The notes: generated by a model not told the origin, from the sequence alone. Shown: positions 9,447-53,341, numbered from the stretch's first letter. The stretch: 64,000 nt of DNA from Nitrospirota bacterium (GCA_016201865.1 JACQCA010000066.1:14867-78866), one strand, 5' to 3'. Made by a program: numbers and translations.

Positions 9447-10750
9447 TTCAATCCCGCATAGTTTGAGAACGCTGATTTGTATTTATAATTTAAACTTGTA
9501 TCCACTTCCGCCAAGCCGTTTTTAATCAAGTGCATATTGACAAAAGTTTTATTTTTGAGAAAAAGGTATCCGAGAACGTTGTTATGCTCATCATGCTTCA
9601 CGTCGTCAAACTTCAAGAAAACTTTCTGTCCTTTTATGAGATTTTGTAAAAAGGCAATCGCCTCTTTCTTTTTCATCTCAATCGGCTTCACGCCAAGGAG
9701 ACGGATCTTGAGGCCTGTATCCAGCTCTATCCGGTCTGGCGACTCCACAGATTTAACAGTATAGAGATTGGCATCCGCTTTTTCTTTTCCATCAATCTTT
9801 GATCCGAATCTGAGTTTTCTTGGATCTACCTTCTTGTCGAACTTCACGGGGTCTCTAAAAATATAGGGCAGCTTTGTAATTTCTTCCTTAAAATCGGGAT
9901 TGGGGTTGGCCTGCTTTACTACTTCGAAATGCGTTGCCTTGGGGAATAGCGTGGATTCGTGTATTTTTAGTTTATTCTCGATAACAGGAAAATATTCGTG
10001 GTTAATTTCATAACCAACAGAATTCCGTCCAAGATTTTTCGCGGCCAGCGATGTTGTTCCGCTACCAAGAAAAGGATCCAAGACAGTATCGCCGACAAAA
10101 GAAAACATCTTTATAAGCCGTCTCGGCAGTTCTTCGGGGAAAACAGCAAGGTGATGATCCTGTTTTTCGCCCGAAAAATTCCAGTGGCCGTAAAAATATT
10201 CGTTCCACTCTTCGGTAGTAAGCTTGGACTGTTCTCTAATTTCCGGCGAAACCTTGGGAGCGTCGCCTAATTTTTTAAACAAGAGAATAAACTCATAGTC
10301 CAATTTTACGATTCCGTTTCTCGGATATGGAAACGAGCCCATCACCGTTGCGCCACCGGTGGTGTTCATCGTAGTCACTTTTTGCCAGATGATCGCGCCC
10401 ATGTAATCGAACCCGATCGTCTCACAAAATTTAGTGATCTCTGTCCTGATAGGGATAACCTTGTACCGTCCATAATAGACAGAGCGAGCGAACTGATCGC
10501 CGATATTGACGCAGAGCCGGCAGCCCGACTGTAAAACCCGGTAGCATTCTTTCCAAGCGAGGTTCAAATTGTTTATGTATTCTTCATATGTGTCGTTGAA
10601 GCCGATTTGATCGCCATGTCCATAATCTTTAAGCTGCCAATAGGGTGGGGATGTCACCACCAGATGCACCGATTCATCCTTGACCTCTCTCATGCTCCGA
10701 GAGTCGCCGATGATGATCTTATGGTTTGTGATCATGTCATGCGGGCGCAT
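9443..10750 (-). CDS. Beta-class amino (probably N4-C) DNA methyltransferase fused to a C-terminal SNase-like domain
   Basis: VVTSPPY motif IV, DPFLGSGTT motif I, HLAVFPEEL; C-terminal KIRLLGVKP...VLGYLF...VNMHLIKNGLA resembles thermonuclease. Start at ATG 10750 (SD GAGG) or 10735. Confidence 0.88.
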   Translation of the reverse strand: MRPHDMITNHKIIIGDSRSMREVKDESVHLVVTSPPYWQLKDYGHGDQIGFNDTYEEYINNLNLAWKECYRVLQSGCRLCVNIGDQFARSVYYGRYKVIPIRTEITKFCETIGFDYMGAIIWQKVTTMNTTGGATVMGSFPYPRNGIVKLDYEFILLFKKLGDAPKVSPEIREQSKLTTEEWNEYFYGHWNFSGEKQDHHLAVFPEELPRRLIKMFSFVGDTVLDPFLGSGTTSLAAKNLGRNSVGYEINHEYFPVIENKLKIHESTLFPKATHFEVVKQANPNPDFKEEITKLPYIFRDPVKFDKKVDPRKLRFGSKIDGKEKADANLYTVKSVESPDRIELDTGLKIRLLGVKPIEMKKKEAIAFLQNLIKGQKVFLKFDDVKHDEHNNVLGYLFLKNKTFVNMHLIKNGLAEVDTSLNYKYKSAFSNYAGLK

Positions 10751-10802
10751 AGGCACCTCATTTCATCGCGGGCCGGACAAATTCTCTAAACGAACAGACG
10801 GA

Positions 10803-15503: not shown

Positions 15504-15725
15504 TTATTTTTCCACAAGTTTTGTTAGATGAATGAGTTTATCCATTGTCAATCCTTTAAGAAGTTTTTTGCGCTCCCGCGTATAGTCGCCCCGTCCTCGA
15601 TCGAAAAGCGCGATAAAACGCAGGGCATTAGCAATCCCCAGCTCATCGCAGAGAACTCCAAACCCTTTGCGATACAACTCCATCGGCGGAATCGGCTTTG
15701 AACTCTTTTTTACTTTGGTCTTCAC
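15504..15725 (-). CDS. Small protein, probable antitoxin partner of the PIN protein
   Basis: ELYRKGFGVLCDELGIANALRFIALFDRGRGDYTRER resembles small proteins commonly paired with this PIN family; start overlaps the PIN stop. Confidence 0.65.
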   Translation of the reverse strand: MKTKVKKSSKPIPPMELYRKGFGVLCDELGIANALRFIALFDRGRGDYTRERKKLLKGLTMDKLIHLTKLVEK

Positions 15726-16174
15726 TTAAGACCTCCTTCCAGGAATTCTGTAGGCCTGACGATCTTAACCCCGATAGCAAGTGATTGTCGTCGAGCAAAC
15801 CTTAGAATGCCTTCATCACAAGTAACAAAAGCATCCGCGCCAGCGGATTCTGCTAATGCAAGGTGCAGGGCGTCAACTCCCGTAAGACCGTGTTGATGTA
15901 TTTGACGGGCTCTGGCTTCAACCGCTTGCGTAAGTGAAGAAATTTCATGATGCATTTCCAGGATGCGTTGGGTTGCCTCGCGACGGTCCTTCCGAGGGTT
16001 ACGGTTATTTTCCGCTATCAGCGCTCCCGAGACAATCAGGTGCACTTTGCCCTTCTCGACGAACTCGATCAATGTCGTTGACGCCTCTGCTTCCAGAGCG
16101 ATCCGTTCATCCGAACGCGCGTCAAATGGACGTTTCAAACAGCACAAATCGATGTAAACCTTCGGGACCGGCAC
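15722..16174 (-). CDS. PIN-domain (VapC-like) ribonuclease
   Basis: VYIDLCCLKRPFD, LEAEA, DALHLALAE, FVTCDE give the PIN acidic tetrad; lower GC than the flanks. Confidence 0.85.
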   Translation of the reverse strand: MPVPKVYIDLCCLKRPFDARSDERIALEAEASTTLIEFVEKGKVHLIVSGALIAENNRNPRKDRREATQRILEMHHEISSLTQAVEARARQIHQHGLTGVDALHLALAESAGADAFVTCDEGILRFARRQSLAIGVKIVRPTEFLEGGLK

Positions 16175-16466: not shown

Positions 16467-17414
16467 TTACTTTGAAATGGGGTTTCGGGCAAGAAAAGCG
16501 CGGATTAACTCGACCACCTTTTCCGGCTGATCCAGAAAGGCGAAGTGGCCCGATTTGGAGATCACTTGATATTCGACCGGCACTTGTCGAATCTGGCCTC
16601 GGGTCCGCTGGACGAGTTTCTCGCCCTCCTGAAGGACATGATCGTCTTCGGCTCGCAGCAGCAGGAGGTGACGATTGAAATTGGGAAGCATCGCAAGGAC
16701 GTATCCTTCCCGAACATCATTCGCATAGGCCTTGAATCGGTCGCGGACGGCATTTCTCTGGTCCTCTTCCTGAAGCGGCAGCATCAATCGTTCCATCTCC
16801 TCACGAGACGGCTGCTTTTCGCGGTATTTCAGGGAGCCGCTCGAGAGCAGCATCGGGAGTCCTCCGTCCGCGGATTGTTTGAAATAGTTCAGCGTTCCCT
16901 CAAATCCCGGCGTCCAGTTAACGGACTCAAAGCCATTAATACTGACGACGGCCGTGGTAATTTCAGGAAAGTGATGCCCGAACGCCACGGCCAGGCCGCC
17001 GGCTTCCCCGACGCCCAGGAGATAGACGTTGGTCAAACCCAATCCCTTGACAAAATCACGGTAAAGATAGAGAAGATGCAAAGATGAATAATCGCCCTTC
17101 ATTGAAGCCGGGGCTCGGATGCCCGGAGGCTCGACTACGATGACGCGCGCGGAAGCGCTGAGGCGGCTGCTTAATTCCGTCCAGAGCCGGGCGCTGAACG
17201 GGTAGGGAGTCAAAACAATCAACGGATCGCCGCTGCCCTGATCGCTGTAAACGATCGGGACGTTCTGGACGGATATCGAGCGCAGATCCGGCGGAAGGCT
17301 TTTGGGGTCAAAGACGGTCGGCAGCGGAGCGCCGACCGTCGGTCCGGGGCCGCCAACGGTCAATAGACCGGCAACCGTAATCGTCGCGAGACCTCGTGCG
17401 AGAATCTTCCCCAT
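16467..17414 (-). CDS. Exported alpha/beta-hydrolase-fold protein lacking the nucleophile
   Basis: Signal peptide from ATG 17414; VYSDQGSGDPLIVL, LLGVGEAGG in place of GxSxG, SGHFAFLDQPEKV catalytic-His region. The ORF-track TTG start coincides with a -35 box. Confidence 0.8.
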   Translation of the reverse strand: MGKILARGLATITVAGLLTVGGPGPTVGAPLPTVFDPKSLPPDLRSISVQNVPIVYSDQGSGDPLIVLTPYPFSARLWTELSSRLSASARVIVVEPPGIRAPASMKGDYSSLHLLYLYRDFVKGLGLTNVYLLGVGEAGGLAVAFGHHFPEITTAVVSINGFESVNWTPGFEGTLNYFKQSADGGLPMLLSSGSLKYREKQPSREEMERLMLPLQEEDQRNAVRDRFKAYANDVREGYVLAMLPNFNRHLLLLRAEDDHVLQEGEKLVQRTRGQIRQVPVEYQVISKSGHFAFLDQPEKVVELIRAFLARNPISK

Positions 17415-17477
17415 AGCGGTCGTTAAAATACAGCAGAATTCACGGTGTGTCAAGAAAAAAGATGTCCGTATTTCCGC

Positions 17478-17507
17478 TTGACATCCCCTGCCCTCTCCTT
17501 GTAGGAT
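17478..17507 (+). promoter_or_regulatory. Sigma-70 promoter for the 17588 ORF
   Basis: TTGACA-N18-TAGGAT. Confidence 0.5.
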
Positions 17508-17587: not shown

Positions 17588-18187
17588 ATGCAAAAATCGT
17601 TGACGACGCTCCTTGTGGCGCTCTTCCTGGTCGGTCTCTGTGACATCCGATCCGATTCAAACGCAATGATGCAACATCTGTCCCCGGAGCAGCGAGACGA
17701 CGCGATTAAGTACGGAAAACGGGGTGTTCGAAAAGAGGTGGAAGAGTTTATCAAGGAATGGTCGGTGGATAAGGGGAGCATGGGGTCTGCCTTTATCACG
17801 ACCGAATTTCTGGCGTTAGCTTATGCCGCTCGCCAGGCCGCGCTTCAATCGGCCGACTTAAACAGCTTTGATATTGAAGACACGCTTGCAAAAAGCAGCG
17901 GCAAACTCGTGTTCCGGGTCACCTTGTACGGTAATACCGATAACTTCGCCAAGGATTACACAGCCGTTCTCCAGGTCGGCGGGAATATCCTCCCTTCGAC
18001 GTTCTGGAGCAACCCGCCCGGCGAGCCCTATGGGGATGGGAAAACCAAACCGGCCTTCGTAACCGACAGCGATTATTTTTTCCCGGCCGAGGGGATCGAT
18101 CCGAACGCCTCGGTCACACTCGTGGTGCAGAACAAAGACGGCAAAGAGGTCATGAAATTTCCATTTAATTTTGCCGCGTTGCGTTGA
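17588..18187 (+). CDS. Exported hypothetical protein
   Basis: SD AGGAGG, signal peptide, beta-rich C-terminal half; no recognisable family. Confidence 0.75.
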   Translation: MQKSLTTLLVALFLVGLCDIRSDSNAMMQHLSPEQRDDAIKYGKRGVRKEVEEFIKEWSVDKGSMGSAFITTEFLALAYAARQAALQSADLNSFDIEDTLAKSSGKLVFRVTLYGNTDNFAKDYTAVLQVGGNILPSTFWSNPPGEPYGDGKTKPAFVTDSDYFFPAEGIDPNASVTLVVQNKDGKEVMKFPFNFAALR

Positions 18188-18254
18188 TCCGACTGATTTG
18201 AAGCGTTCGCTCTGCCGATTTCCTGCTCCCGGCCGATGAGCTGCAGCTTAAGTA

Positions 18255-18283
18255 TTGACAAATAAAAAAAATTATGTAAAGAT
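18255..18283 (+). promoter_or_regulatory. Sigma-70 promoter for the first cytochrome genes
   Basis: TTGACA-N17-AAAGAT with extended-10 TG and an A-rich spacer. Confidence 0.5.
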
Positions 18284-18371
18284 CAAGACCCAATCTTAAC
18301 GACGATCATATAGGCATGCTGTCCTGCCTGCTGCGGTTTGCAGCAGCGATGACCTTGAAGAAGGAGTGGAC

Positions 18372-18755
18372 ATGATGAAAATGCGGTGGTTGGTCGGGGG
18401 TTTCCTTTCATCGATCCTCGTTGTCGGTCTTCTCCTCGCGTTCGACGTTTCAACGACTTCGAAAGCCGAGTACGGCGACATCACCCTGAATCACTACGCC
18501 GAAAAAGCCGGAATGCCTCCCGTTGTTTTCCCACATTGGTTTCATCGGATCCGATTCAAGTGCAAAGTTTGCCACCCGGCCATCTTTGAAATGAAGCAAG
18601 GATCGAATGACATCAATATGATCAAAATCATCAAGGGCGATTTCTGCGGCAAGTGTCATAATGGCCGCATCGCCTGGCCTCCCATTTACTGTGATCGGTG
18701 CCATGCCGGAAAGAGCGACATTACGATTCCGAAGGCCAGGGGGTTTGTGAAATAG
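18372..18755 (+). CDS. c7-type triheme cytochrome c (minimal form)
   Basis: Signal peptide; FPHWFH distal His pair; CKVCH, CGKCH, CDRCH; conserved Met in NDINM. Confidence 0.92.
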   Translation: MMKMRWLVGGFLSSILVVGLLLAFDVSTTSKAEYGDITLNHYAEKAGMPPVVFPHWFHRIRFKCKVCHPAIFEMKQGSNDINMIKIIKGDFCGKCHNGRIAWPPIYCDRCHAGKSDITIPKARGFVK

Positions 18756-18807
18756 ACGGACGTCACCCCGCCGGCCTCATCATCCAGAAGAAGAGGGATC
18801 ATAGACC

Positions 18808-19503
18808 ATGAAGCGCCAACATCTCGCGAGCTCTGTCGCCGTCCTCTTCTTTATCGCTGCGGCGGTGGTGTATGTTTTGACCGCCTCTTTCAGAGGGGAA
18901 ATAAGCCGTTCCAGCGCGGCGGAACCCGCTGCCAAAACGCAGGCACAAAAAAACCTTCCCTGCGATCCCTTGATGATCAGCGGCATTACAGGTGAGTGCG
19001 CTGGCACCGGCGACCCCACCGGCTTCGCGGGAGAGGCGGAAAGGGCGGGATTGGCCGACCATCCGCTGGCCTTGGAACTGTCGGACCTTCCGAAAGACCG
19101 TTATGGATTGATCGATTGGGCCATCTCGATCAAGGAGGGAAAGGTCAAGCCGCGAGAATCGCTGAATCCCGATGAGAAGCCGATGCCCCCGTTCGATCTG
19201 GATATCGCGATCTTTACCAAAAGCCAGTTTCAGCCCGACGTCATCTTTCCGCACTTTGTCCATACACTCTGGCTGACCTGCATCAACTGTCATCCGGCCA
19301 TCTTTCCTATGAACGCAAAAGAGGCCAACAAGATGATGACGATGCCCAGAATCGCATCGGGGGAGTTCTGCGGCCGATGCCATAACCGGATTGCTTTTCC
19401 TTTGAGCGACTGCCTGCGTTGCCATGTGAAACCCAAAGATACGCCCCCCATTGATCCCGATTACCAAGGAGTAGCTCAACAGCAACCCAAGGCCCCGCAA
19501 TGA
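18808..19503 (+). CDS. c7-type triheme cytochrome c with N-terminal cap
   Basis: N-terminal hydrophobic segment; FPHFVH; CINCH, CGRCH, CLRCH; extra Cys pair CDPLMISGITGEC. Confidence 0.92.
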   Translation: MKRQHLASSVAVLFFIAAAVVYVLTASFRGEISRSSAAEPAAKTQAQKNLPCDPLMISGITGECAGTGDPTGFAGEAERAGLADHPLALELSDLPKDRYGLIDWAISIKEGKVKPRESLNPDEKPMPPFDLDIAIFTKSQFQPDVIFPHFVHTLWLTCINCHPAIFPMNAKEANKMMTMPRIASGEFCGRCHNRIAFPLSDCLRCHVKPKDTPPIDPDYQGVAQQQPKAPQ

Positions 19504-19586
19504 AACTCGTTTCGTTTGACGCTATTGAGTCTTTCGCTTGAAAGACCGGGGCCTGTCATCTCAGAAGAGTCAGGAGGTTCAACGCC

Positions 19587-20948
19587 ATGAAGCGACGTGG
19601 ACTCTTTACCCGGAACCTCTTCCAAACGTTTACCGCCTTCCTCTTTGTCTGTCTGTGCGCCTTCTTGACCGCCATCGATATAAAAACTGAACCGCCCCAA
19701 TCACAAGCAGCCCTCTCGCCGTCATTTTCAGTGGATAAGAGCGGCATCGTGACGACCAGGGCATCGGGTACCGCAACGGTTACGGCGATGATGAAAGACA
19801 AAACGGTCTCGGTTCAGGTCGTGGCTCCCAAGCCCGGCCCGGCCAAGATCGAGGTGCGGCCCGAAACGGCCTCAGGCCTGGTCGGCGATGATATTCGACT
19901 GAATGCCGTGGCGGTGGATGCCAAGGGAAAAGAAAGGACCGATCTGACCGTGGATTGGAAATCGGGTAATCCGGCCGTCGCCGCCGTTAATGCCGATGGG
20001 ATCGTCTCCCTCAAGGCCGCCGGAACCGTCACGATCGTCGCGTCCGCCGAAGGCAAAACCGCCTCGGCCGTTTTGACCGTCGCGAATCCGCCGACGGCGA
20101 AGGTCGACGTTCGCCCTGCGGTCGCCGCGCTTTTCGTAGGTGAAACCAAACAATTGGAAGCCGTCGCGGTGGATGCCAAGAACGGCGAACAAAAGGACCC
20201 GGCGGCGACTTGGCAAACGGGCAGTCCCTCGATTGCCAGCGTGAGCAATAACGGTCTTGTGACGGCCAATGCCGTCGGATCGGCCGTGATCACGGCTGCC
20301 GTCGGAAGCATCACCAGCAGCCCGGTCACGGTCACGGTGAAGGCCAAGGAATCGTCGTCCCTAAAATTATTACAAGACGAACTGAGGACCAGACTTAGAG
20401 GGAAGGATCCGTCCGAGCTCATCTATCTAAGCGGCATCACGGGTGAGATTGCCGGAACCGGCGATCCGACAAAGTTCGCCGGCGACGCCGAACAGGCCGG
20501 CCTGTCGCAACATCCCCTCGCCTTGGAGCTTGCGGAACTTCCAAAGGACCGATACGGACTGATCGACTGGGCCACCGCTATTAAGACCGAAAAGGTTAAG
20601 CCGCGGTACAGTATTGACCCCAAGGCCGGAGCGGACGAAGTCCCGTTTCAGTTGGACGTCGTCGTTTTTACCAAAAGCCAATTTATGCCCGACGTCATCT
20701 TCCCGCACTTTGTCCATACGCTCTGGCTGACCTGCACCAACTGTCACCCGGCCATTTTCCCCATGAACGCAAAAGAGGCCAACCGGACAATGACGATGCC
20801 CAGAATCGCATCGGGAGAGTTTTGTGGCCGGTGTCATAACCGGGTTGCTTTTCCATTGAGTGACTGCCTGCGTTGCCATGTGAAACCTAAAGAGATGCCC
20901 CCTGTTGACCCGGATTATCAGGCCCAAAACAAGGCGAGGATGCCTTGA
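19587..20948 (+). CDS. Big_2 Ig-like repeat protein fused to a c7-type triheme cytochrome c
   Basis: One partial and two full Big_2-like repeats (WKSGNPAVAAVNADGIV, WQTGSPSIASVSNNGLVTA) followed by CTNCH, CGRCH, CLRCH. Confidence 0.9.
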   Translation: MKRRGLFTRNLFQTFTAFLFVCLCAFLTAIDIKTEPPQSQAALSPSFSVDKSGIVTTRASGTATVTAMMKDKTVSVQVVAPKPGPAKIEVRPETASGLVGDDIRLNAVAVDAKGKERTDLTVDWKSGNPAVAAVNADGIVSLKAAGTVTIVASAEGKTASAVLTVANPPTAKVDVRPAVAALFVGETKQLEAVAVDAKNGEQKDPAATWQTGSPSIASVSNNGLVTANAVGSAVITAAVGSITSSPVTVTVKAKESSSLKLLQDELRTRLRGKDPSELIYLSGITGEIAGTGDPTKFAGDAEQAGLSQHPLALELAELPKDRYGLIDWATAIKTEKVKPRYSIDPKAGADEVPFQLDVVVFTKSQFMPDVIFPHFVHTLWLTCTNCHPAIFPMNAKEANRTMTMPRIASGEFCGRCHNRVAFPLSDCLRCHVKPKEMPPVDPDYQAQNKARMP

Positions 20949-21036
20949 CGAATCCGCATGATCATCGGACGATACAACGGTTCTTGCTCATGCCGAAACC
21001 GGTCTGCTTGCTTACAAAACACCGACGAGAAGCGGA

Positions 21037-21065
21037 TTGACAAGACCATGGCCGTCCGATATAAT
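21037..21065 (+). promoter_or_regulatory. Consensus sigma-70 promoter for the cupredoxin gene and downstream genes
   Basis: TTGACA (21037-42)-N17-TATAAT (21060-65), a perfect match. Confidence 0.85.
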
Positions 21066-21101
21066 TTGTTTAAATATGTTTAGCCGCAGGAGGAGTTGGG
21101 A

Positions 21102-21461
21102 ATGAGAAAAATTGTATCGCTGTTGTTTGGAGTAACAGCCGCCTTTATCTTTCTGCCGTTGTTTTCCGTTCAGGGTGAGGAAGGAACGGCACACGAAATC
21201 ACGATCATCCGAAACGCCTTTAAACTTAACCCTCCGGAGATCACGATCAAGATCGGCGACACGATCAAGTGGACCAATACCGATGAACGCAAACACAATT
21301 TGGCCAGCATTCCGGGATCCGGTCCCACCGATGAACTAGAGATCTTCTCCGTCATGGAACCCGGCGCCGTCTATTCTCACACGTTCCAAACTCCCGGCGA
21401 GTATCCCTATTTCTGCTTCATCCACAACCAGATGACCGGAAAGATCACGGTGGCCAAATAG
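21102..21461 (+). CDS. Plastocyanin/amicyanin-like type-1 copper protein (cupredoxin)
   Basis: Signal peptide; ITIKIGDTIKWTN, KHNL (His), YPYFCFIHNQM (Cys-His-Met ligand loop); SD GGAGGAG. Confidence 0.92.
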   Translation: MRKIVSLLFGVTAAFIFLPLFSVQGEEGTAHEITIIRNAFKLNPPEITIKIGDTIKWTNTDERKHNLASIPGSGPTDELEIFSVMEPGAVYSHTFQTPGEYPYFCFIHNQMTGKITVAK

Positions 21462-21473
21462 CTTCGGCTTCCT

Positions 21474-22046
21474 ATGATGCGGCGCAAAAAGACGGGCGAA
21501 AAGGTCTGGGCTCTCGGTCTGATTTTCCTGATCGGCGGCCTTTATTTCTACGCCCAAAACGGTCTCGAAGCCCAGACCACCGAAAACCCGGCCGCGCCGG
21601 CCCAACCCTCTAAAGAAACAAAGACCGCCGGGGTCCCGCCAGCGGCTACTCCGTCGCAAGAAGAAGAGGAAGAAGAACATCCGCTGGCTTTCGACTACCT
21701 GCCCAAGACAAAACTGGGTTATGTGGACTGGGTCGCCGCCATTAAACAGGGGACCATCAAACCCCGCGACTCGCTGGAGCCCAGCAATCCGCCGGGAATG
21801 CCCCCGCTGAATTTTGACGTGATTTTTAAAGTGCCGGGCGATCTTCCCGACGTCGTTTATCCCCATTATCCTCATACCTTGTGGCTGGACTGCAGAAACT
21901 GCCATCCCAGCATCTTTTTGATGCGGGCGGGTTCAAACCCCGTCACGATGGCCAAGATTTTCAAGGGCGAGTATTGCGGCCGGTGCCACGGCGTGGTGGC
22001 CTTTCCGATCTCGGACTGCTCCCGTTGCCATTCAAGGCCAAAATAA
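21474..22046 (+). CDS. c7-type triheme cytochrome c with acidic linker
   Basis: N-terminal TM/signal; QEEEEEEHPLAF; YPHYPH; CRNCH, CGRCH, CSRCH. Confidence 0.92.
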   Translation: MMRRKKTGEKVWALGLIFLIGGLYFYAQNGLEAQTTENPAAPAQPSKETKTAGVPPAATPSQEEEEEEHPLAFDYLPKTKLGYVDWVAAIKQGTIKPRDSLEPSNPPGMPPLNFDVIFKVPGDLPDVVYPHYPHTLWLDCRNCHPSIFLMRAGSNPVTMAKIFKGEYCGRCHGVVAFPISDCSRCHSRPK

Positions 22047-22110
22047 ACGCATTGACTAATTATTTTCAATCATGATCCTAAAGCATCGTCGTGAAATACA
22101 GGGTGTTGCG

Positions 22111-23364
22111 ATGGCCAAATGGATGAGGGTTGATGGACACACTGCCCCTCGATGGGTTGCGGCCGTTGCGTTTTTTGCCCTCGTTTATGGCGGGATCATG
22201 GCCGACCGTTCTTTCTATTCTGAGATCGCCTCGGCCGCCGGCTCCGATTGGGCTGCCTTGGGGCAACCCGTGAAGGCCTTCTCGTCCGTTTGGGTGGATG
22301 TCGATGCTTCACGGCATGCCCTAAACCCATCCTTGGTATTCGTCGACACCACCCCGTTCTTGGGCTGGATCGAACTCAATACGCACGGCGTCTCGCGTGT
22401 TCATGTCCGACACTGGGACCGTTCCGAATGGGTCAAGGACGGCGGGGCCCTGAACATGGACGCGACCCATCGGGCCTCTGATCTTACCATGAGCTCAAAC
22501 GGTAAAACCCCGTATTTGGCCTGGACGGAACTGACTGCGAGAGACATCCCGCATCTCTATGTCAAACATTTGGTCGGAGATCAATGGGTCATTGACGGCG
22601 CTCGGTTGAATGTGGACCCGACGCATCGGGCCGTCAACCCGGCCCTGGCCGTGGCCGGAACGGTTCCCTATTTGGCCTGGAGCGAGCCGAGTGCGAGGGT
22701 CTTTCAACTTTATGTCAAGCATCTCTCCGATGACGGCTGGCATCTGGACGGGGTGGAGGGGTTGAATCGGTCGCCGACGCGCGACGCGATCGAGCCCGCC
22801 ATCGCGCTTCAGGGGTCGGTGCCTTTCGTTGCCTGGATCGAATTATCCGACCAGAATGTTTATCAGGCCTATGTCAAGCGCCGGGCGGGTTCCACCTGGG
22901 AAGGGTTGGGCGAAAGCCTTAATCTCGATCCGAAGAATCACGCATCGAGTCCTGCGATCACTTTTGTCGGTGAGACTCCGTACGTGGCCTGGACCGAAAT
23001 CAATGCGGAAGGCATATCCCAGATCCATGTGAAACACTGGGACAACGGCTCATGGATATCCGATGGGGGGAGCGTAAACATCGACCCCGCCCGCCACGCC
23101 TTAAGTCCTGCCCTGATAGGAGTCGGCTCGGCCGCGTACATCGCCTGGACGGAGTACGACGCCAAAGGCATTACCCAGATCCACGTCAAACATTGGTCAG
23201 AAACTCGGTGGGAATCGGACGATCCGCAGCTCAACACGATCCCGGCTACGGCCTCGTCGGCCCCTTTTCTGGCGAGTTCAGCGTCTTCTCTGTATGTGGC
23301 CTGGAGAGAGGTCTATCAGAATGGGATATCTCACATCGTTGTCAAGCGCTTGCCGGCTGAATAA
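22111..23364 (+). CDS. Exported or membrane-anchored 7-repeat beta-propeller protein
   Basis: Seven ~52-aa repeats of the form A.sP.l...g..PYvAW.E....g..qi.VKhw....W..dG..lN.dP; hydrophobic N-terminus; alternative start 22072. Confidence 0.8.
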   Translation: MAKWMRVDGHTAPRWVAAVAFFALVYGGIMADRSFYSEIASAAGSDWAALGQPVKAFSSVWVDVDASRHALNPSLVFVDTTPFLGWIELNTHGVSRVHVRHWDRSEWVKDGGALNMDATHRASDLTMSSNGKTPYLAWTELTARDIPHLYVKHLVGDQWVIDGARLNVDPTHRAVNPALAVAGTVPYLAWSEPSARVFQLYVKHLSDDGWHLDGVEGLNRSPTRDAIEPAIALQGSVPFVAWIELSDQNVYQAYVKRRAGSTWEGLGESLNLDPKNHASSPAITFVGETPYVAWTEINAEGISQIHVKHWDNGSWISDGGSVNIDPARHALSPALIGVGSAAYIAWTEYDAKGITQIHVKHWSETRWESDDPQLNTIPATASSAPFLASSASSLYVAWREVYQNGISHIVVKRLPAE

Positions 23365-23851
23365 CCTTTTCTCCGGGGGTGCCATCTTATTGATCTGTCT
23401 TACGATCAACGGCTGCGCACAACCGAAGGCGGTCAAATCCCAAATCGTTAAAAAGTCGGGGTTGGACGCGGAAGGCCGGCCGATCGCCTTGAGCGTTCTC
23501 CCCAAAACCATCGTGGGCGATATCGACTGGGTCGCCGCCCTTAAAGAAGGAATTCTCCAACCCAAGTATTCCCTGGAGGCTAACCCGTCCCCGGAAAGTC
23601 CGATTCTGAACATGGACATCGTCTTTAATATCGGTGAGGCATATCCTGTGCCCAATGTCGTCTTCCCCCATGCCCCGCACACCATGTGGCTTAGCTGCAA
23701 CGCCTGTCATCCGGCCATCTTCATCATGAGACAAGGCGCCAACCCGATCAGCATGGACCGCATCATCAAGGGGGAATACTGCGGCCGGTGCCACGGCGTA
23801 GTGGCCTTTCCGTTCACCGACTGTTTCCGTTGTCACTCCAGACCGAAATAA
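23321..23851 (+). CDS. c7-type triheme cytochrome c lipoprotein
   Basis: LLICLTINGC lipobox; FPHAPH; CNACH, CGRCH, CFRCH; exact start uncertain. Confidence 0.88.
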   Translation: MGYLTSLSSACRLNNLFSGGAILLICLTINGCAQPKAVKSQIVKKSGLDAEGRPIALSVLPKTIVGDIDWVAALKEGILQPKYSLEANPSPESPILNMDIVFNIGEAYPVPNVVFPHAPHTMWLSCNACHPAIFIMRQGANPISMDRIIKGEYCGRCHGVVAFPFTDCFRCHSRPK

Positions 23852-23858: not shown

Positions 23859-24932
23859 TCATCCCGCGACGGAAAACACGATCGGATAGACGATCGTCAC
23901 ATCGCCGCCGGCGGGAGGGAACTTCCATTGCAGGACTCGCTTGACGAGCGCCTCTTCAAACGGGGTGTTCTTCATCGAACTGGAAACGACACGGCAATCG
24001 ATCACATCGCCGTTTGCGGAGATCATGAACTCGACCGTAACCGTCCCCCGGAGGGCGGGATTCTCGCGAAGGGCCTTATTGTACAGGAAACTGATCCCTC
24101 CTTTGTACGAATCGACGACTTGGGAGATGGACTCGTAACTCCTCAGGTTCTTCCCGTCCTCCGAGCCCTTGATCTGAAACGGGCTTTCCACCGCCGTGGT
24201 TTTGCGTTCCGTCAAAGACGATCCGCCCACATCCGTGTTTAGCTTCCCGATCATTTGATTGATCCCGCCGCTTCCGGTCACGGCCGACTCCCCCGCGGCT
24301 GGTTTCGACTGCTTGATTGACTTCTCCAGCTTGGCCACGATGTCGTCGATTCCCGCGGTTCCGGTCGGCGGCGCTTGGACGGCCGGTCCGGCCGACGTTC
24401 TGGGTGCCTGGCTGAGCCCTTTGATTTCTGAAAAGACCTTTTTCAGTTTTGCGTCCGGAACGCTTTCGGGCTCATTTCGTGTATCGGACTGCTTTAAAAG
24501 CCTGAGAAGACCGCTGTTCATCGCCACCTCAACGTTCTTTCTCCGTTGGGTCTCTTGTTGGGCCTGTATTTCTTCCGGAGTCGGGCCCTGCTGCTTGGCC
24601 ACCTCCTGGGGCGGTGCTGCCGACTCTTTCGCCTGTTCCGGTTTGGGTTCCTCCTTTTTAGTTTCCTTGGGTTTCTCTTCGGCCTTGGGTTTCTCTTCGG
24701 CCTTCGTCTCCTCTTTCTTCTTGACCTGCGGGGGCGGCGGGAGAGGTTTCGCCGCTTCGATGATCATCTTGGCGATACGCGGTGGGAGCCGGGTATAGTC
24801 CTGACGCTCCGGGTTTTTGACCGTGATCAGGTTCATAACAAGCGCCACGGCACCGTACAGAAGCACACAGCCCCAGGCGATTTGCCTAAAGCGTTGGTCA
24901 ATCTCATAGAATTCGACGGTAGTCGTTTTCAT
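23859..24932 (-). CDS. TonB-like energy transducer with AgmX/PglI (GltG-like) C-terminal domain
   Basis: N-terminal TM helix, Pro/Lys/Glu linker, C-terminal LYNKALRENPALRGTVTVEFMISANGDV...VLQWKFPP...TIVYPIVF; no FHA domain. Confidence 0.85.
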   Translation of the reverse strand: MKTTTVEFYEIDQRFRQIAWGCVLLYGAVALVMNLITVKNPERQDYTRLPPRIAKMIIEAAKPLPPPPQVKKKEETKAEEKPKAEEKPKETKKEEPKPEQAKESAAPPQEVAKQQGPTPEEIQAQQETQRRKNVEVAMNSGLLRLLKQSDTRNEPESVPDAKLKKVFSEIKGLSQAPRTSAGPAVQAPPTGTAGIDDIVAKLEKSIKQSKPAAGESAVTGSGGINQMIGKLNTDVGGSSLTERKTTAVESPFQIKGSEDGKNLRSYESISQVVDSYKGGISFLYNKALRENPALRGTVTVEFMISANGDVIDCRVVSSSMKNTPFEEALVKRVLQWKFPPAGGDVTIVYPIVFSVAG

Positions 24933-25432
24933 GTGGACTCTTTCTGGATCACGGCGAGATCGATCTGGCCGAACTCGGACTGGCTGCAGGTGTACATCAC
25001 TTTTTCCAGCAGCCGGAATGGAATCTGTTTATCCCCGAGGATGGTCACGCGGCCCTCAAACGGTTTCCCCGCGCTGGCGTTCGCAAAATACTTTCCCCGC
25101 TCGGCCGCGTAGTCCATCTCTTTTTTGAGGGCCGGGATCAAGAGATCCTCTTCCTTCAGGAGCGGACTGACATCGGCCACCTTTCGGCCGTCTACGATGA
25201 TGTCGGTTTGTGTGATCATCACGGTCAAGGTCGTATGCGGCGTCAACTGGGCTAACGATTCCGGAAGCTTGATTCGTTCCGCCGCAGGGATGGCCGAGGC
25301 CTCCCCCGAGAAATTGTAGAGCAGGAAGAGCACCAGGTTGGTGAACAGATCCACGAGCGACGTCAAGGTCAAAACCATGGAAGCCGCGGAGGCGTTTTTC
25401 CTTCGCTCGGAGAATCGCGATTGAACCCTCAT
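24929..25432 (-). CDS. ExbD/TolR (AglQ/S-like) protein with TM Asp
   Basis: LTLTSLVDLFTNLVLFLL TM; ILGDKQIPFRLLEKVMYTC. Confidence 0.9.
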   Translation of the reverse strand: MRVQSRFSERRKNASAASMVLTLTSLVDLFTNLVLFLLYNFSGEASAIPAAERIKLPESLAQLTPHTTLTVMITQTDIIVDGRKVADVSPLLKEEDLLIPALKKEMDYAAERGKYFANASAGKPFEGRVTILGDKQIPFRLLEKVMYTCSQSEFGQIDLAVIQKEST

Positions 25433-25929
25433 TGAACTTCTCCTAGTGAAACGTTCGGGAACAGGGAATAACTGGTTTTTTTGCCGTCCACCGTTACAAA
25501 GGTGACCCGCGTGGCGTCCATCACCTGGACTAATTGCTCATACGGAATATCCGGCTTGCTTAAGACGATCGCATTGTCGACCTTGGGAAATCGGGCCTTC
25601 AGTTGTTGAAGGAGCGACGAGAGGGCTTGCAGGTCATGCCCTTTGGGAGTTGGCTGGATGAGATCGATCACCTTATTCCCGTTGGCCACAACCAGCCCCT
25701 TCTCGGTAATCGAAATCGTCAGGATCAATTGTTCCCCCGCCGACGGCAATTTGCTCATCAAGTCGGCCGATGCCGGCGGGGGCAGATAGATTTCTAGAAC
25801 CGCCAGTCGCGTGAAGACGGCTGTGATGAGCAGGAACGGGGCCAGCACCACTAACAGGTTCATCATCGGCGTCAGATCGATATCGGTCGATTCAAGACGC
25901 CGGGTTCGTCTTCGGGACCGAAGCAACAT
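25429..25929 (-). CDS. ExbD/TolR (AglQ/S-like) protein with Asn at the TM Asp position
   Basis: DIDLTPMMNLLVVLAPFLLITAVF; PDIPYEQLVQVMDATR; SD AAAGGA before ATG 25929. Confidence 0.9.
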   Translation of the reverse strand: MLLRSRRRTRRLESTDIDLTPMMNLLVVLAPFLLITAVFTRLAVLEIYLPPPASADLMSKLPSAGEQLILTISITEKGLVVANGNKVIDLIQPTPKGHDLQALSSLLQQLKARFPKVDNAIVLSKPDIPYEQLVQVMDATRVTFVTVDGKKTSYSLFPNVSLGEVQ

Positions 25930-26590
25930 TTCCGGGTTTCCTTTCCGGGGCCGCCACCGTTTCACGGTTGGCGTAAAAATTAGTCAGCTTCGTCGAGTAC
26001 TGATCAATCGCATCAATGATCTTGGTGGTTCGGGCCTGAAGAAACGCATAGAACAGAATCAGCGGAACCGCCACGATCAAGCCGAAGGCCGTCATGTTCA
26101 GCGCGACCGATATGCCTCGGGCCAGCAGCACCGCCTTTTGAGACGGATCGGCCGCGGAGACGGCCGCAAAGGCCCCGATCACACCGACGATCGTTCCCAA
26201 CAGACCCAACAAGGTGGCGACGTTCGCCAGAATCGGCAGATAGGCTGTCCGTCGCTCCAAGGGGGGGAGAACCTCCAACATTGCCTCTTCCATTGAACGC
26301 TGGATCGGTTCACGCGAGGCCGTGGGTTTCGCCGCTTTCAGTCCTGCCAGCAGGACATGATAGATCGGCCGCGTGCTGGACTGACAAAGCTTAATGGCGT
26401 CCTCGGTCTTCTGATCCGCCAAAAAATTCTTGACCTGTTTCCAAATGGACTCCCCGTTGGCGGAAGCGCGAGTGATGTAGAGCGTCCGTTCGATCACGAT
26501 GGCCGTTCCAAGGGCCGCCACCAAGAGAACGGGGTACATGAAAAACCCGCCCTCCATAAAAAAATTCCCGATCACGTTGAATATATTCAT
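25892..26590 (-). CDS. MotA/TolQ/ExbB (AglR-like) proton channel
   Basis: GGFFMYPVLL, ANVATLLGLLGTIVGVIGAF, GISVALNMTAFGLIVAVP; SD AAGGAG before ATG 26590. Confidence 0.93.
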   Translation of the reverse strand: MNIFNVIGNFFMEGGFFMYPVLLVAALGTAIVIERTLYITRASANGESIWKQVKNFLADQKTEDAIKLCQSSTRPIYHVLLAGLKAAKPTASREPIQRSMEEAMLEVLPPLERRTAYLPILANVATLLGLLGTIVGVIGAFAAVSAADPSQKAVLLARGISVALNMTAFGLIVAVPLILFYAFLQARTTKIIDAIDQYSTKLTNFYANRETVAAPERKPGNVASVPKTNPAS

Positions 26591-26606
26591 TCCATCTCCT
26601 TTCCGC

Positions 26607-27044
26607 TCAGGGACCCGAACGCGACTCAACAGCTCGTATCTCTCGACTGTATCTCTCCTTATCGAGGGGAGTATAGATCTCTTCCAGGTACCCCCCCTGG
26701 ACTTCCTTCTCCTCCGATAACAACGGGTCCGGTTCCGTTCCCGGGAGAAGACACCCGTTCTTGAATTCACAGACGACCGTAGATAGGACCGGGTCCTTCC
26801 AGGGCAGCGAATCGTTCATCTGGGGTCGTTCGACCGTCCCGACGATCTCGGTCTCCAAAAGCTTCAGCGACCCTAGAACATCTCTGAACTTTCCGGTGAT
26901 CTCGGTTTCCTTGAGCTGGAGCGGTCCGCGGTTCCGCTCGGGCACCTTGGAATCCTGGGCCTGCGTCGAGCCGAGACCGTTCAGCGATCCGGTCACGGCG
27001 ATGACGATGACGATCCGCTTGATGTTAGGGTTGTCCAACCACAT
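26607..27044 (-). CDS. Small exported protein, GltF-like by position and motif
   Basis: Signal peptide; ETEIVGTVERPQMNDSLPWKDP resembles the small conserved protein found between the TPR genes and exbB in such clusters. Confidence 0.6.
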   Translation of the reverse strand: MWLDNPNIKRIVIVIAVTGSLNGLGSTQAQDSKVPERNRGPLQLKETEITGKFRDVLGSLKLLETEIVGTVERPQMNDSLPWKDPVLSTVVCEFKNGCLLPGTEPDPLLSEEKEVQGGYLEEIYTPLDKERYSREIRAVESRSGP

Positions 27045-27732
27045 TCGCCGCTCCATGCGCCGTTCTCTGCTCGAGATCGGCGATCCAGATATCCACAGTC
27101 TGATTTTTGCCGGCCAAGGCTTCATAGTTCTGATAGTAACGCACCGCTTCTTTTGGCTGATTCAGGTAGAGATCGTACAGCACGCCCAAGTTGTAGTAAA
27201 CCGGCGCGAACTTCGGATTCAACGCCATCGCCTTCCGATAAATCTTCTCGGCCTTTTGAAAATCCCCCTGCTCTCGATACGCGATGGCGAGATTGTTATA
27301 CAGTTCGGGGAAGACGGGCCGCGCCGGAGACGCCTCCGGGGCCCGTTCCGAAAGAGCGATCGCCTTTTGATACTCGTCGATGGCTTTGTCCAACATTCCT
27401 CTCCGCCGGTAAAGGATCCCCAGTGTGTTGTGCAGATCGATCCGATCGGGATGGGAAGCCACCAACGGCTCCAGCGCCGACTGGGCGTTTTCGAGCTGCC
27501 CTTGATCGAGATAAGAGAGCGCCTGCCGATAGCCGGCTTGAAGTCCTCCGTCCATTGCTGTTGAACCGGTCGTCTTCGTGGGGGATCCCGCGACCGCCTG
27601 CCCCTTCGTCGCGGACCCTTCCGGGCGAGGGACGGATGCGCAACCGAAGATCAAACCCGTCAGCAGCCACCACAACGCCGCCCGACGGGCGATGGCCGTT
27701 CCCATGCGTGTCCATCGATCCGCGCGGTTCAT
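27025..27732 (-). CDS. TPR lipoprotein (GltE/AglT-like)
   Basis: LIFGC lipobox; three TPRs (HNTLGILYR, YNNLAIAYR, YYNLGVLYDLYL); ends VDIWIADLEQR. Confidence 0.8.
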   Translation of the reverse strand: MNRADRWTRMGTAIARRAALWWLLTGLIFGCASVPRPEGSATKGQAVAGSPTKTTGSTAMDGGLQAGYRQALSYLDQGQLENAQSALEPLVASHPDRIDLHNTLGILYRRRGMLDKAIDEYQKAIALSERAPEASPARPVFPELYNNLAIAYREQGDFQKAEKIYRKAMALNPKFAPVYYNLGVLYDLYLNQPKEAVRYYQNYEALAGKNQTVDIWIADLEQRTAHGAANVVGQP

Positions 27733-30700
27733 GGGGTTAAAACCAGCTCCCGAGGGATGACCTCGTCCAGTTCCCGCTTCCGGTACCGAGCCGGCATGAG
27801 CCTCGCCAGATCGTCGTAGCTCTGCTTGATCCAGGGATCATACAACCCCAGTTGTTGGGCCCGATGGACATTGCTTTCATAAGCTGCGATGGCTTTTTCC
27901 TCGAAGGGAAAGGCCTGCTCCTCAATCAAGAAATTATACTGTTCCAGCTGCTGCGGAGTCAAATCCGCCGGACGTTCCGATTCCAGCAACGCGTTTCGAA
28001 ATTTTTCAAACACCACCCCGATCTTTTGAGTCGCGGCCGTTGTGACCTCGGCCACGCTGAACTCGGTCGCTTGGGCGTACCCTTCCAGAACCTCCTTTAA
28101 CAATTTTTTCTTTTTGGCCAGGTTTTTTTCCAGCGGCGATACCAGCTTCACCTCGTCGAACTGGATCAGGAGTTCATCGGCCATTAGAAGATGGGCCTTG
28201 GCCACATAGTAGCCCGCCGGCGATGCAGCCGCATCGCCTCGCCCGTACCGGTCAATGAGCGTTTGGAGAATCGGCTGGGCTTCCTGCCGACGGCCTTCTT
28301 GGAGCTTGGCCCATGCCAGCTTGAACGTGGTTTCCACAACCTGCTCATACTCGCCCGGGTATTGATCCAGATAGGTCTGGTACACCGCCCCGGCCTTCAT
28401 CCAGTCGCCCAGTTGTTCGTAAAGCCGACTGGCGGCTAACAAAGCCTCTCCGGTCGTCTTGCGATCAACGCCTAATTTTACCACAGATTCGTATCCTTTG
28501 GCTGCCTCTCTCAGGCGGCCGCTCCGCTCATGGATCTTGGCCACCTGGATCGCCGCATGGGGACCGTAGGTTGACGATGGATACTCCTGCAACAAGATCG
28601 TAAACGCCTTGAACGCTCCTTCCGAGTCATCGCGAAGCTGTGCGGTATTACCGGCGTCGAACAACGCCACCGGCGCGATCTCGCTTTCCGGCACTTCGGC
28701 CTGGACCTTCAGGAACCCGGCCTGCGCCTCGGTCTGCTTTCCGGCCGTCTTCAGACCTTCGGCCTGTTTGTATAACGAGGATGCCCACAACCGCTTCAGT
28801 TCTTCGCGCTCCTGATTCTTTGCCGAAATCTCATCCTGCGCCAATTTTCGGTAGACGGCCGCCGCCTGCTCGTACGCACGCTCTTCGAAATAATGATCCG
28901 CAATGAGCCGTTCCGAACGATAGGACAGATCCACTTTGGAAGCCGTCTGGAGCCCCTTGACCTTCTCGGCCAAGTCCTGGGCTTCCGTCACCTTTCCGGA
29001 CGCGAGGAGGGTTCGTCCCACCTGCAACAACACCTCCGGAACCTTTTCGCTCAAGGGATGGTTCGGGTACCGTTGCAGTTGCATCTGAAACAGTTGCAGC
29101 GCTTCATCCAACTGGTTTCGGAGCAGGGCCGCGCTTCCACCGTCGAACAATGCGACCGGGGCGATTTCACTCCCCGGCACTTCCAAATAGACCTTCATGA
29201 ATTCCATCTGCGCTTCCCGCAGATTCCCCTCGGCCTTGAACTCTTCGCCCCGTTTGTACAACGATGTGGCCCACAACCGCCGGAGATCCTCGTCGTCCCC
29301 GACCACTCCGCCCGTTTGCGTCAATTGTTCATAGGCCGCCGCCGCCTGCTCGTACGCATGCTCTTCGAAGTAAGCGTTCCCAATCATTCGCTGGGCCTTG
29401 AGCGAGGGGCTATCCGTCGGAAGAGAGGCCTTGACGATCGCCTCCGCCATCGAACGGGCCGCCGGGAAGTTTCCCGCATGGTAGTAGGTCTCGGCCCCCT
29501 TCCAAAGGACATCCATCACGCGGGAATCGTTCGGAAAGGCCTCCGCAAATCGTTTGCAATTCCGCGCAAGCTTCAGCACCGTCGGACTGATCGTGGGATC
29601 CTGACGTCCCTGACCGATGATCTTATCCAGCGTCACGATGGCGGCGTACCCCGATTCGGCGCTGTCTTGATGAAGGGGATATTCGTAAGCGGTGCGTTCG
29701 TATTCAGCCACGGCCTCGGGGTAGCGTCGAAGCTCAAACAGGCCCTCGGCCGAGAGAAAATTGATTCGCGCAGCTTCCGGCTCTTTTGGAAAGGACTTCA
29801 GGTACCGCCGATACCAGGTGAGCGCTCTCTCGTAATCCGGCGCTCGTCGAGTCTGCTGGGCCTCGGAGTGGTAGAACAGGGCCATCTGGCTGATTAATTG
29901 CCGCGTCATGGGTCGCGCCCGGTTCCGACTCGGGGGTGTCGCCTTCTGGTACCAGACGCTCTCATCGCCGAAACGCTCCACAAAGCTGATGCGTGCGCGA
30001 TTGGCCAGATCCACCAATTTCAACCGTTGATAGGCCTCAATGATGTCCATCTGGACCATCGGCGCCTCCTCATGGAACGGATAAGTTTTGATAAACGTTT
30101 CGTAGGCCCCCACCGCGTCCTGCACCCGTTTCTGGGCCATATACAAATCGCCCTGTTTCCGATAAATGAGATCCTCATAGTCCCGATGTCCCGCTTTTTC
30201 GAAATAATCCTGAATCTTGGTCGGCGGACCGAGGTACGAAAATGCAAAGGCCAGGCCGCGGATGATCTCCATGATCTGGTCCCATTCAGTGGCCGACATC
30301 GACCTCGGATCCAGTCGCGGCGGGTTGCTTCCCCTCGCGACGCGTTTTCGATCCACCAGACGGGTGAATATTCCTGCCGCTCTCTCATATTCTTGAAGCG
30401 AAAAATAAGACCACCCCAGTTTGTACAAAGCGCGCTCAATCAGATCGGGGTCTTTGGAATTGATCACCTTTTGATACGCCTCCGCCGCCTGCCGGTACTG
30501 GTTCGAGTCGTAATATGTTTCGGCCAAACGGAAGACCGCTTCCAGGCTCAACGGACTCGGCGGATAATGGTCCGCCATTCGTCGCAGCACGGCCATCTCC
30601 TGTTCCGTGTCGCCCTCGTCTTCATAAACATGGGCCAATTGGTACAGCACCAAGTCATTTTCAGGTCGGTTGGGGTAGAGGGTCAACAATTTTTCGTAAA

Positions 30701-32664: not shown

Positions 32665-32785
32665 AGATCCATGCAAAGTATGAATTTCATGACCACGAAA
32701 CGGGAATCGGCATCCATCGACCGCGCACGGCCGAGAGGACCCCGCAACCTGTCGCGATTCACTCGGAATGGCCGGCGAGGCGCCA

Positions 32786-34099: not shown

Positions 34100-34244
34100 C
34101 AGACGCTCCGCCTTTGTTTCGTTACAAAACGTAGGATACCATATCAGAAATCCCTGCGGCCTGGCAAGGAACGCTTGCACCGGCCGGCCGGAAGACCTAT
34201 ACTTGTATTAATTCCTTTTCCCCTATCGATGAAGGTGTTCCGTC

Positions 34245-50023: not shown

Positions 50024-50029
50024 TGATTC

Positions 50030-50045
50030 TGTTCCACGTGGAACA
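50030..50045. other. parS centromere site
   Basis: TGTTCCACGTGGAACA, a perfect 16-bp palindrome matching the chromosomal parS consensus, directly upstream of mnmG and about 4 kb from oriC. Confidence 0.9.
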
Positions 50046-50088
50046 ATGGGATCCTCTAAGGTTGCGCAAGGGGATCCTTTTGACCGGA

Positions 50089-53116: not shown

Positions 53117-53341
53117 TTATTTAACGGGGTCGTATCCGCCCGAATGGAGCGGCTGGCATTTCAATAATCGGCTGATTGCGAGAAGCAGGCCCTTTGCAGG
53201 ACCATGCCTCTGAATCGCTTCCACCGCGTAGCAAGAACAGGTTGGCATGAATCGGCAGGCTTGGGGCAGGAACGGCGAGATCGCCTGCTTATAGAACCTG
53301 ATCAGCCCTATCAGGATCCGGGTGATGAACGCTTCTAACAT
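53117..53341 (-). CDS. yidD: Membrane protein insertion efficiency factor
   Basis: [32 protein letters not shown]. Confidence 0.95.

Follow-up and report, generated by a model that had tools for sequence, protein, structure and literature searches.

The uet cluster (uetABCDEFGHIJ) of Candidatus (Ca.) Tenderia electrophaga and Tenderiales has been proposed to serve extracellular electron uptake (Eddie et al. 2022; bioRxiv 10.1101/2022.05.06.490989). It encodes a tetraheme cytochrome (UetA), a peptidyl-prolyl isomerase (PPIase; UetB), a porin (UetC), three triheme c7 cytochromes (UetD, UetE and UetG), UetF, two NHL propellers (UetH and UetI) and an undecaheme cytochrome (UetJ) (bioRxiv 10.1101/2022.05.06.490989); uet has also been reported in Gallionella and Leptothrix (PMC10734462; PMC13386937), and in Ca. 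Tenderia electrophaga grown on a cathode the Uet triheme cytochromes rank with the most strongly expressed genes (PMC5371394). Uet itself is a prediction backed by transcriptomics, and is uncharacterised. Porin-cytochrome (PCC) clusters of Ca. Manganitrophaceae have been proposed for Mn(II) oxidation (Yu et al., PMC9040806), in a paper that mentions neither triheme cytochromes nor cupredoxins. Here we analyse a stretch of 64,000 nucleotides from Nitrospirota bacterium (GCA_016201865.1 JACQCA010000066.1:14867-78866; hereafter the window, with positions counted from its first letter), in which eight genes for exported proteins, all on the + strand, span 17588-23851 and encode five triheme c7 cytochromes, a cupredoxin, a beta-propeller and a protein without a family. 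A preliminary description of this cluster, made from the sequence of the window, called it a candidate undescribed electron-transfer system; 'undescribed' was too strong, as its triheme cytochromes are of the same two types as UetD/E/G. The cluster looks like an elaboration of an already named, uncharacterised Uet-type system; what appears new is the combination of a cupredoxin, a propeller of 52-residue repeats, the exported protein U199 and the lipoprotein cytochrome c7E, for which no description in Nitrospirota was found in the literature searched.

Composition of the eight-gene cluster

The genes are listed below; the export signals are kept in orthologues of the cluster proteins.

17588-18187, + strand: U199, exported 199-aa protein without a Pfam or NCBIfam family
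18375-18755, + strand: c7A, 'bare' A-type triheme cytochrome (TIGR04257, 67 bits)
18808-19503, + strand: c7B, IDW-type triheme cytochrome with a hydrophobic N-terminal segment and a Cys pair (TIGR04257, 56 bits)
19587-20948, + strand: BigC7, 453 aa, Big_2 immunoglobulin (Ig)-like domains joined to a copy of c7B (Pfam Big_2, Cytochrome_C7)
21102-21461, + strand: predicted type-1 cupredoxin, 119 aa, exported (Pfam Copper-bind, 47 bits)
21474-22046, + strand: c7D, IDW-type triheme cytochrome with a signal peptide and an acidic Pro/Ala/Glu linker (TIGR04257, 64 bits)
22111-23364, + strand: predicted seven-bladed beta-propeller, 417 aa, exported (AlphaFold2 model, 52-residue repeats)
23321-23851, + strand: c7E, IDW-type triheme lipoprotein, 176 aa (TIGR04257, 64 bits; lipobox)

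The starts of the cupredoxin (21102), propeller (22111) and c7E (23321) genes were corrected from called genes in identical contigs; c7A probably starts at 18375, giving a protein of 126 aa, the length of its orthologues, and the same open reading frame (ORF) could begin at 18366.

All five cytochromes score above the cutoffs of two c7 models, with 56-67 bits against TIGR04257 (c(7)-type triheme domain; curated cutoff 40) and 38-52 bits against PF14522 (Cytochrome_C7; cutoff 24.8). A six-frame scan of the whole window found 15 CxxCH motifs, all of them in the five c7 ORFs and none elsewhere, a confinement that is not due to chance, and the five co-oriented genes and 15 hemes first counted in this cluster therefore stand. 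In an alignment of the five domains, PHxxH, the three CxxCH and two Met are invariant, and one of these, M35, aligns with the 'TM' of all four domains of the dodecaheme cytochrome GSU1996 of Geobacter sulfurreducens (PDB 3OV0), in agreement with the conserved Met noted in the preliminary description. Each domain has five His available for six axial positions, and one heme per domain would for this reason have a non-His ligand, presumably M35; each core c7 domain is accordingly predicted to hold two bis-His hemes and one His/Met heme. The five cytochromes match the GSU1996 domains at E values of about 1e-36 to 1e-39 (3e-39 for c7A), and share with them the triheme domain of about 70 residues as well as the Met at the 'TM' position. 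Whereas GSU1996 carries four domains in one polypeptide 'wire', the proteins of the window hold one c7 domain each, with no tandem c7 domains, and differ in their N-terminal extensions, with separate export or anchoring.

These differing N-terminal fittings (bare, Cys pair, Big_2, acidic linker and lipobox), also pointed out before, hold in orthologues. The signal peptide of c7A is followed by EYGDITLN...FPHWFHRIRFKCKVCH; the Cys pair of c7B (PCDP..SGITGEC), the acidic Pro/Ala/Glu linker of c7D and the lipobox of c7E are each kept. BigC7 stands apart, since its C-terminal 190 aa are 71% identical to c7B, and at its position a Big_2 lipoprotein without a cytochrome is found in four related loci (L004, L007, L008 and L016), the gene being absent in a fifth (L006); the fusion of Big_2 domains to a cytochrome thus appears to be a recent, lineage-specific duplication of c7B and not a core part of the cluster.

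The cupredoxin scores 47.2 bits against PF00127 Copper-bind (cutoff 21.2), and its alignment with amicyanin 1ID2, the best match of solved structure (E=4e-10), brings all four ligands (His, Cys, His, Met) into alignment; the family score and the His-Cys-His-Met set together identify it as a predicted type-1 copper protein, as had been proposed. Its short ligand loop, C-x2-H-x2-M, is shared with amicyanin, and its score against the amicyanin equivalog TIGR02657 is 51.7 bits, under the cutoff of 110.2. Its 72 homologues form a tight clade, with nearly all of them at 53-82% identity (the four weakest at 42-47%), and those that carry a source name are proteins of Nitrospirota metagenome-assembled genomes (MAGs). 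The chain of methylamine dehydrogenase, amicyanin and cytochrome c551i also combines a seven-bladed propeller subunit, a cupredoxin and a c-type cytochrome. We rejected this analogy: there is no small subunit of the tryptophan tryptophylquinone type and no MauG, the amicyanin cutoff is not reached, the propeller gave no match to the methylamine dehydrogenase heavy chain, and no mau-type family was found among the cluster proteins or the other scanned ORFs of the window. The likeness would seem to extend to the type of carrier only.

The propeller consists of seven exact 52-residue repeats, and its AlphaFold2 model (predicted local distance difference test score, pLDDT, 85.7) has seven blades of 4 strands (28 strands), which bears out the seven-repeat propeller of the preliminary description. 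The conserved residues W-x-E, LN.D and HA..P recur once per blade, and because they do so the repeats look structural or binding rather than like a single active site, and thus non-catalytic. Pfam holds no family for this protein and gave no NHL match; a fold search returned generic propellers only (a lyase, sialidases and kelch proteins, at template-modelling scores of about 0.5-0.56), and no relation to NHL, Reg_prop or uet proteins was detected. Relatives were found with an alignment, a single-sequence scan of genome contigs having given none; about 45 full-length relatives are 40-66% identical, and those with a source name come from Nitrospirae or Nitrospiria bacterium MAGs. In two proteins (P0044 and P0045) the propeller is fused to an IDW-type cytochrome with a c7E-like end, and in the window the start of c7E overlaps the propeller gene by 44 nt; the natural fusions and this overlap argue that propeller and c7E act as one unit. 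More distant relatives, which lie in large proteins that we take to have domains of the Ig-like, cadherin-like, dockerin, fibronectin and glycoside-hydrolase kinds, keep a domain company that fits a binding or docking role, and we suggest such a role for the propeller.

U199, which indeed matches no Pfam or NCBIfam family, is modelled by AlphaFold2 (pLDDT 86.7) as a helical subdomain at the N-terminus and an Ig-like sandwich at the C-terminus; a fold search with this model gave generic Ig-like matches only. It has 48 homologues, the few with a source name being proteins of Nitrospiria or Nitrospirae MAGs, and stands before c7A in the full-cluster loci. Uet294, UetF311 and a 280-aa protein of Manganitrophus were considered as relatives of U199, and no relation was found.

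Two promoter-like sites precede genes of the cluster. One, before U199 (17478-17507, +), has 10 of the 12 consensus positions in a consensus scan; the other is a perfect (12/12) sigma-70 consensus, TTGACA-17-TATAAT, at 21037-21065 (+), 37 nt before the cupredoxin start. The latter is present in an identical Logan contig as well and was not found at the same position in relatives; it is a candidate internal promoter, and the cluster may be transcribed as two units in this strain. An Rfam scan of 15-35 kb of the window gave no family match.

Relation to Uet and distribution in Nitrospirota

For a direct comparison with uet we used a locus of a Thioalkalispiraceae MAG (L085, 6024-17326), whose content is exactly that of uet: genes for a 4-heme cytochrome, a PPIase, a 591-aa protein without a family, two c7 proteins, two helical proteins, two further c7 proteins, an NHL propeller and a cytochrome with 11 CxxCH. 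The window's c7A is 52% identical over 104 aa to the A-type c7 of this locus, and c7D is 42% identical over 160 aa to the c7 at the UetE position, including the LPK..YVDWV extension. When the cytochromes of all groups are aligned, two types emerge, and the window and the uet loci have both of them: an A-type, with a signal peptide, EYGD(I/V)..N and FPHWFHRIRF(K/R)CKVCH, and an IDW-type, with an LPK...(Y/L)(V/I)DW...G.I.P extension ahead of the heme domain. Given these shared types and identities, we assign the window cytochromes as homologues of the Uet triheme cytochromes UetD/E/G, and the two types, as judged by the alignment, appear to be ancient. The link to extracellular electron transfer, which had been drawn by analogy, is now supported by homology and genomic context.

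The arrangement is also like that of uet in that a run of several single-domain c7 genes leads up to a propeller gene. The window differs from uet in that its 64 kb hold no homologues of UetA, UetB, UetC, UetI or UetJ, in that its propeller is not of the NHL type of UetH and UetI, in that neither U199 nor the Big_2 fusion corresponds to a Uet protein, and in that the genes downstream encode TonB, ExbBD and TPR proteins where uet has ccsAB-nrfG-batABD. Profiles of the cupredoxin clade and of the propeller gave no match to the uet loci.

This last result bears on UetF, for which a cupredoxin label has been published. At the UetF position in 15 proteobacterial loci we find two helical paralogues with weak YfdX/TPR hits (L085 10980-12870, and the same position in L082-L096), and hhalign assigns a probability of <1% to their match with the window's cupredoxin family. 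The published label was thus not reproduced on the uet loci examined, by family hidden Markov model or by hhalign, and may not be valid, at least for these proteobacterial genomes; the gene at this position was called a TPR protein in the 2017 Tenderia paper (PMC5371394).

The preliminary description had made its proposal depend on the genes occurring together elsewhere, and they do so widely, in fixed order, in Nitrospirota MAGs. The order hydrolase, U199, c7A, c7B, (Big_2 protein), cupredoxin, c7D, propeller, c7E, TonB block and UDP-glucose dehydrogenase (Ugd) is identical in every long contig examined, and is kept across uncultivated Nitrospirota MAGs even where the propeller is 41% identical. 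A scan with the cytochrome-domain alignment, taking one genome per species, yielded at least 80 loci, onto which the window proteins were mapped. Among the loci listed, these form a graded series from the full cluster, through c7A-c7B-cupredoxin-c7D-propeller-c7 and a minimal c7A-c7B-cupredoxin-c7D (at least about 14 further loci, including that of the nzgw272 MAG), to c7A-c7B alone and to c7A with one IDW-type cytochrome, the last in Ca. Manganitrophaceae and many others; four c7 genes stand in a row in Gammaproteobacteria and in one Burkholderiaceae MAG.

Some relatives carry variable accessory genes without assigned function inside or before the cluster, which are absent from the window: a protein of 568-574 aa is encoded between U199 and c7A (L016 6100-7824; L018 251-1957), and one of 308-315 aa ahead of U199 (L004 2582-3529). 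Upstream of two full-cluster relatives (L007 1-3009; L016 1-2380) lie genes for class-I c-type cytochromes; one of the products, of 560 aa, combines two cytochrome c domains with an EB_dh (ethylbenzene-dehydrogenase-like heme) domain and could be another relay partner.

In Ca. Manganitrophus sp. GAC4 (L068; CP114561, 176-13054), a c7 pair of A-type and IDW-type stands divergent to a more extensive cluster, whose products are a 5-heme cytochrome, an NHL propeller, another cytochrome, a SurA-like protein, a 613-aa protein with a signal peptide and a terminal Phe, a further NHL propeller and a cytochrome with 10 CxxCH. This is the kind of cluster that has been named PCC, with the difference, as regards a match to PCC_1, that its large cytochrome has 10 CxxCH and not 12. 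Protein by protein it is homologous to uet: its UetA-, UetH- and UetJ-like proteins match those of uet at 90-200 bits; a SurA/PPIase stands at the UetB position, where the cross-match is weak, and the porin-sized proteins have no detectable similarity to those of uet. We found no mention of homology between the Manganitrophaceae cluster and uet in the literature. The Manganitrophaceae loci lack the cupredoxin, the 52-residue-repeat propeller, U199 and the lipoprotein c7E; the module of L068 is homologous to a module found in relatives of the window, and among the loci listed most of the c7A-c7B and c7A-c7D kinds have the same module next to their c7 genes.

Module and full cluster also occur side by side. 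On a 178-kb contig (L098), a full cupredoxin-type cluster lies directly beside genes for a porin-sized protein, a PPIase, two multiheme cytochromes, an NHL protein and a 5-heme cytochrome, homologues of UetA and UetB among them, and the adjacency is similar in L025/L181. In the closest full-cluster relatives (JACQHO, JACQBZ and CAYJTJ), a scan with the 5-heme protein placed the module on other contigs. A UetA-like 5-heme gene is present in at least 16 of the 21 species-representative genomes with a cupredoxin-type cluster, among the matches listed and with no control set, a co-occurrence that is suggestive, not decisive. The earlier statement that the system has no porin, catalytic subunit or quinone-interacting protein is therefore true of this window and does not extend to every relative, as the adjacent module in L098 illustrates; the missing porin and multiheme cytochromes would be a feature of this locus, not of the system.

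A putative relay and its direction

We read the cluster as a periplasmic, partly membrane-tethered relay tied to a Uet-like conduit, a Nitrospirota elaboration of the Uet triheme pair in which inward flow is favoured, and assign this reading a probability of about 0.5. The parts of the relay would be four core single-domain c7 cytochromes, one of them a lipoprotein, with a lineage-specific fifth on an Ig-like stalk, together with a type-1 copper protein, a non-catalytic propeller as the partner of the lipoprotein cytochrome, and U199 as an accessory protein. Electrons would move between an outer-membrane Uet-like conduit, encoded elsewhere in the genome, and inner-membrane respiratory complexes by hopping via the c7 proteins, with the cupredoxin as the high-potential end; flow would be inward, as uptake from an extracellular donor toward an oxidase, and the lipid anchor and the docking propeller would tether the relay. 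Inward flow is favoured because a copper protein is present and because of the roles proposed for Uet and for the Manganitrophaceae PCC. The modular periplasmic relay of the preliminary description remains a fair reading, as the genes co-occur in fixed order and all encode exported redox carriers or accessory proteins; a relatively high potential, a reach to the cell surface and the oxidation of a metal, which it also envisaged, may apply. We infer the contacts, potentials, flow direction and substrate of the relay, as well as the presence of an outer-membrane module in this organism.

Several observations weigh against this reading. Neither a porin nor a multiheme cytochrome nor a respiratory complex is encoded in the window. 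No Uet counterpart was detected for the cupredoxin, for the propeller or for U199, as is true of the lipoprotein cytochrome as well. The module is common in Nitrospirota generally, which bears on the figure of 16 of 21, and where 9-10 kb upstream of a cupredoxin-type locus can be read, there is mostly no module in cis. In several of the genomes that contain such a cluster, a second, plain c7 pair lies beside the module, and since it is this separate pair that adjoins the module, the cupredoxin-type cluster may serve something else. Finally, c7-type cytochromes in Geobacter serve outward electron transfer, so that flow in the relay could also be outward.

One narrower proposal, to which we attach low probability, is that the cupredoxin cluster forms a distinct high-potential branch on a Uet-like conduit: the propeller would tether or dock c7E at the outer membrane, the copper protein would pass electrons to an oxidase, and the donor would be a high-potential extracellular one, e.g. 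Mn(II) or mineral Fe(II).

It is likewise improbable that the same relay and Uet-like conduit carry electrons outward, in respiration of an extracellular acceptor, e.g. Fe(III) or Mn(IV) minerals, humics or a partner cell. Type-1 copper proteins usually have potentials of +200 mV or higher. Such a protein fits poorly in a low-potential outward chain, and the homologous named systems, Uet and the Manganitrophaceae PCC, have been proposed for uptake. Outward flow would agree with the origin of the closest structurally characterised relatives, the GSU1996 domains, in an Fe(III) reducer, Geobacter; multiheme conduits are, moreover, thought to be reversible (PMC10734462), and several host MAGs come from dysoxic groundwater lineages (PMC11033732).

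We also doubt that the proteins are purely periplasmic carriers that work without a conduit, e.g. from a bc-type complex or alternative complex III (ACIII) to an oxidase or a nitrogen-oxide reductase, the likeness to Uet being one of shared ancestry only. No locus examined has a conserved partner enzyme beside the cluster, and the conduit adjacency in L098 and L025/L181, with the co-occurrence at genome level, speaks for a connection to a conduit. Consistent with purely periplasmic carriers are the lack of a conduit within the 64-kb window, the mostly stand-alone position of cupredoxin-type loci in cis, the separate plain c7 pair that often lies beside the conduit in the same genomes, and a propeller-c7 fusion (P0045; L258 4021-5724) that stands alone amid pentose-phosphate and housekeeping genes.

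Aquifers and soils hold abundant Nitrospirota that are not nitrifiers, and what is said of their energy sources is mostly guesswork. As a conserved marker that is easy to recognise, the cluster ties many uncultivated Nitrospirota to Uet-type machinery, which has so far been discussed mainly for Tenderiales, Gallionella and Leptothrix, and it links Uet to the porin-cytochrome clusters of Ca. Manganitrophaceae, for which a role in Mn(II) lithotrophy has been proposed. By itself it reveals no new kind of biochemistry; it does offer a small, tractable set of soluble proteins, with cytochromes of 126-230 aa and a cupredoxin of 119 aa. Were the cupredoxin cluster a distinct high-potential branch on a Uet-like conduit, it would represent a lithotrophy module so far unrecognised in the phylum and a genetic marker for it in uncultivated groundwater and soil Nitrospirota.

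Neighbouring genes and the rest of the window

Two units flank the cluster, both on the - strand.

16467-17453, - strand: exported alpha/beta hydrolase, divergent neighbour (Pfam Abhydrolase_6, Abhydrolase_1)
23859-34180, - strand: TonB, ExbD, ExbD, ExbB, a small protein, three TPR proteins (one of 1154 aa) and UDP-glucose dehydrogenase (Pfam)

A hydrolase orthologue occupies the same position in L004-L007, L016 and L020, making it a conserved neighbour. The TonB block, after which comes a tetrapyrrole-methylase-family (TP_methylase) gene (34245-34946), is convergent with the cluster, and this synteny extends to every full-cluster locus and to three minimal ones (L041, L047 and L048). L023 and L026 lack the block and have the cytochrome cluster directly next to the TP_methylase gene; L033 and others lack it as well, and in Manganitrophaceae the plain c7 pair adjoins Ugd without TonB genes; because the block is separable in these cases, the adjacency would be inherited chromosomal context, and the block is probably a unit separate from the cytochrome cluster. 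That the cluster works with the TonB-ExbB-ExbD-TPR block, e.g. by reducing a metal chelate imported by a TonB-energised transporter, is very unlikely, since beyond the kept convergent adjacency that suggests it, convergent blocks are transcribed separately, no TonB-dependent receptor is present, and the block is missing from the loci just named.

Upstream, beyond the hydrolase, lie a PIN-domain toxin gene and then glycine-cleavage genes. The PIN-domain (VapC-like) gene and a small upstream ORF, a candidate antitoxin, are found at 15504-16174 (-), between gcvT and the hydrolase. L098, L007 and L016 have Reg_prop and cytochrome genes there instead, and for this reason the position may be a rearrangement point.

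Farther along the window, 48143-61739 is an origin neighbourhood, with mnmG, mnmE and yidC (-) and dnaA (54213-55535), dnaN, gyrB and gyrA (+). The cumulative GC skew has its minimum at about 50-52 kb, and because dnaA, dnaN, gyrB and gyrA adjoin this minimum we take the window to be chromosomal DNA near the origin. The best match listed in a scan with GyrB, to Nitrospira MAGs, was 64% identical, which was too little to inform the taxonomy. At the other end, 8727-10756 (-) encodes a restriction endonuclease of the MjaI family and an N4/N6 DNA methylase that has a staphylococcal-nuclease domain at its C-terminus; this is the stretch of lowest GC content in the window (0.47-0.50 vs about 0.57), and is probably an acquired restriction-modification island.

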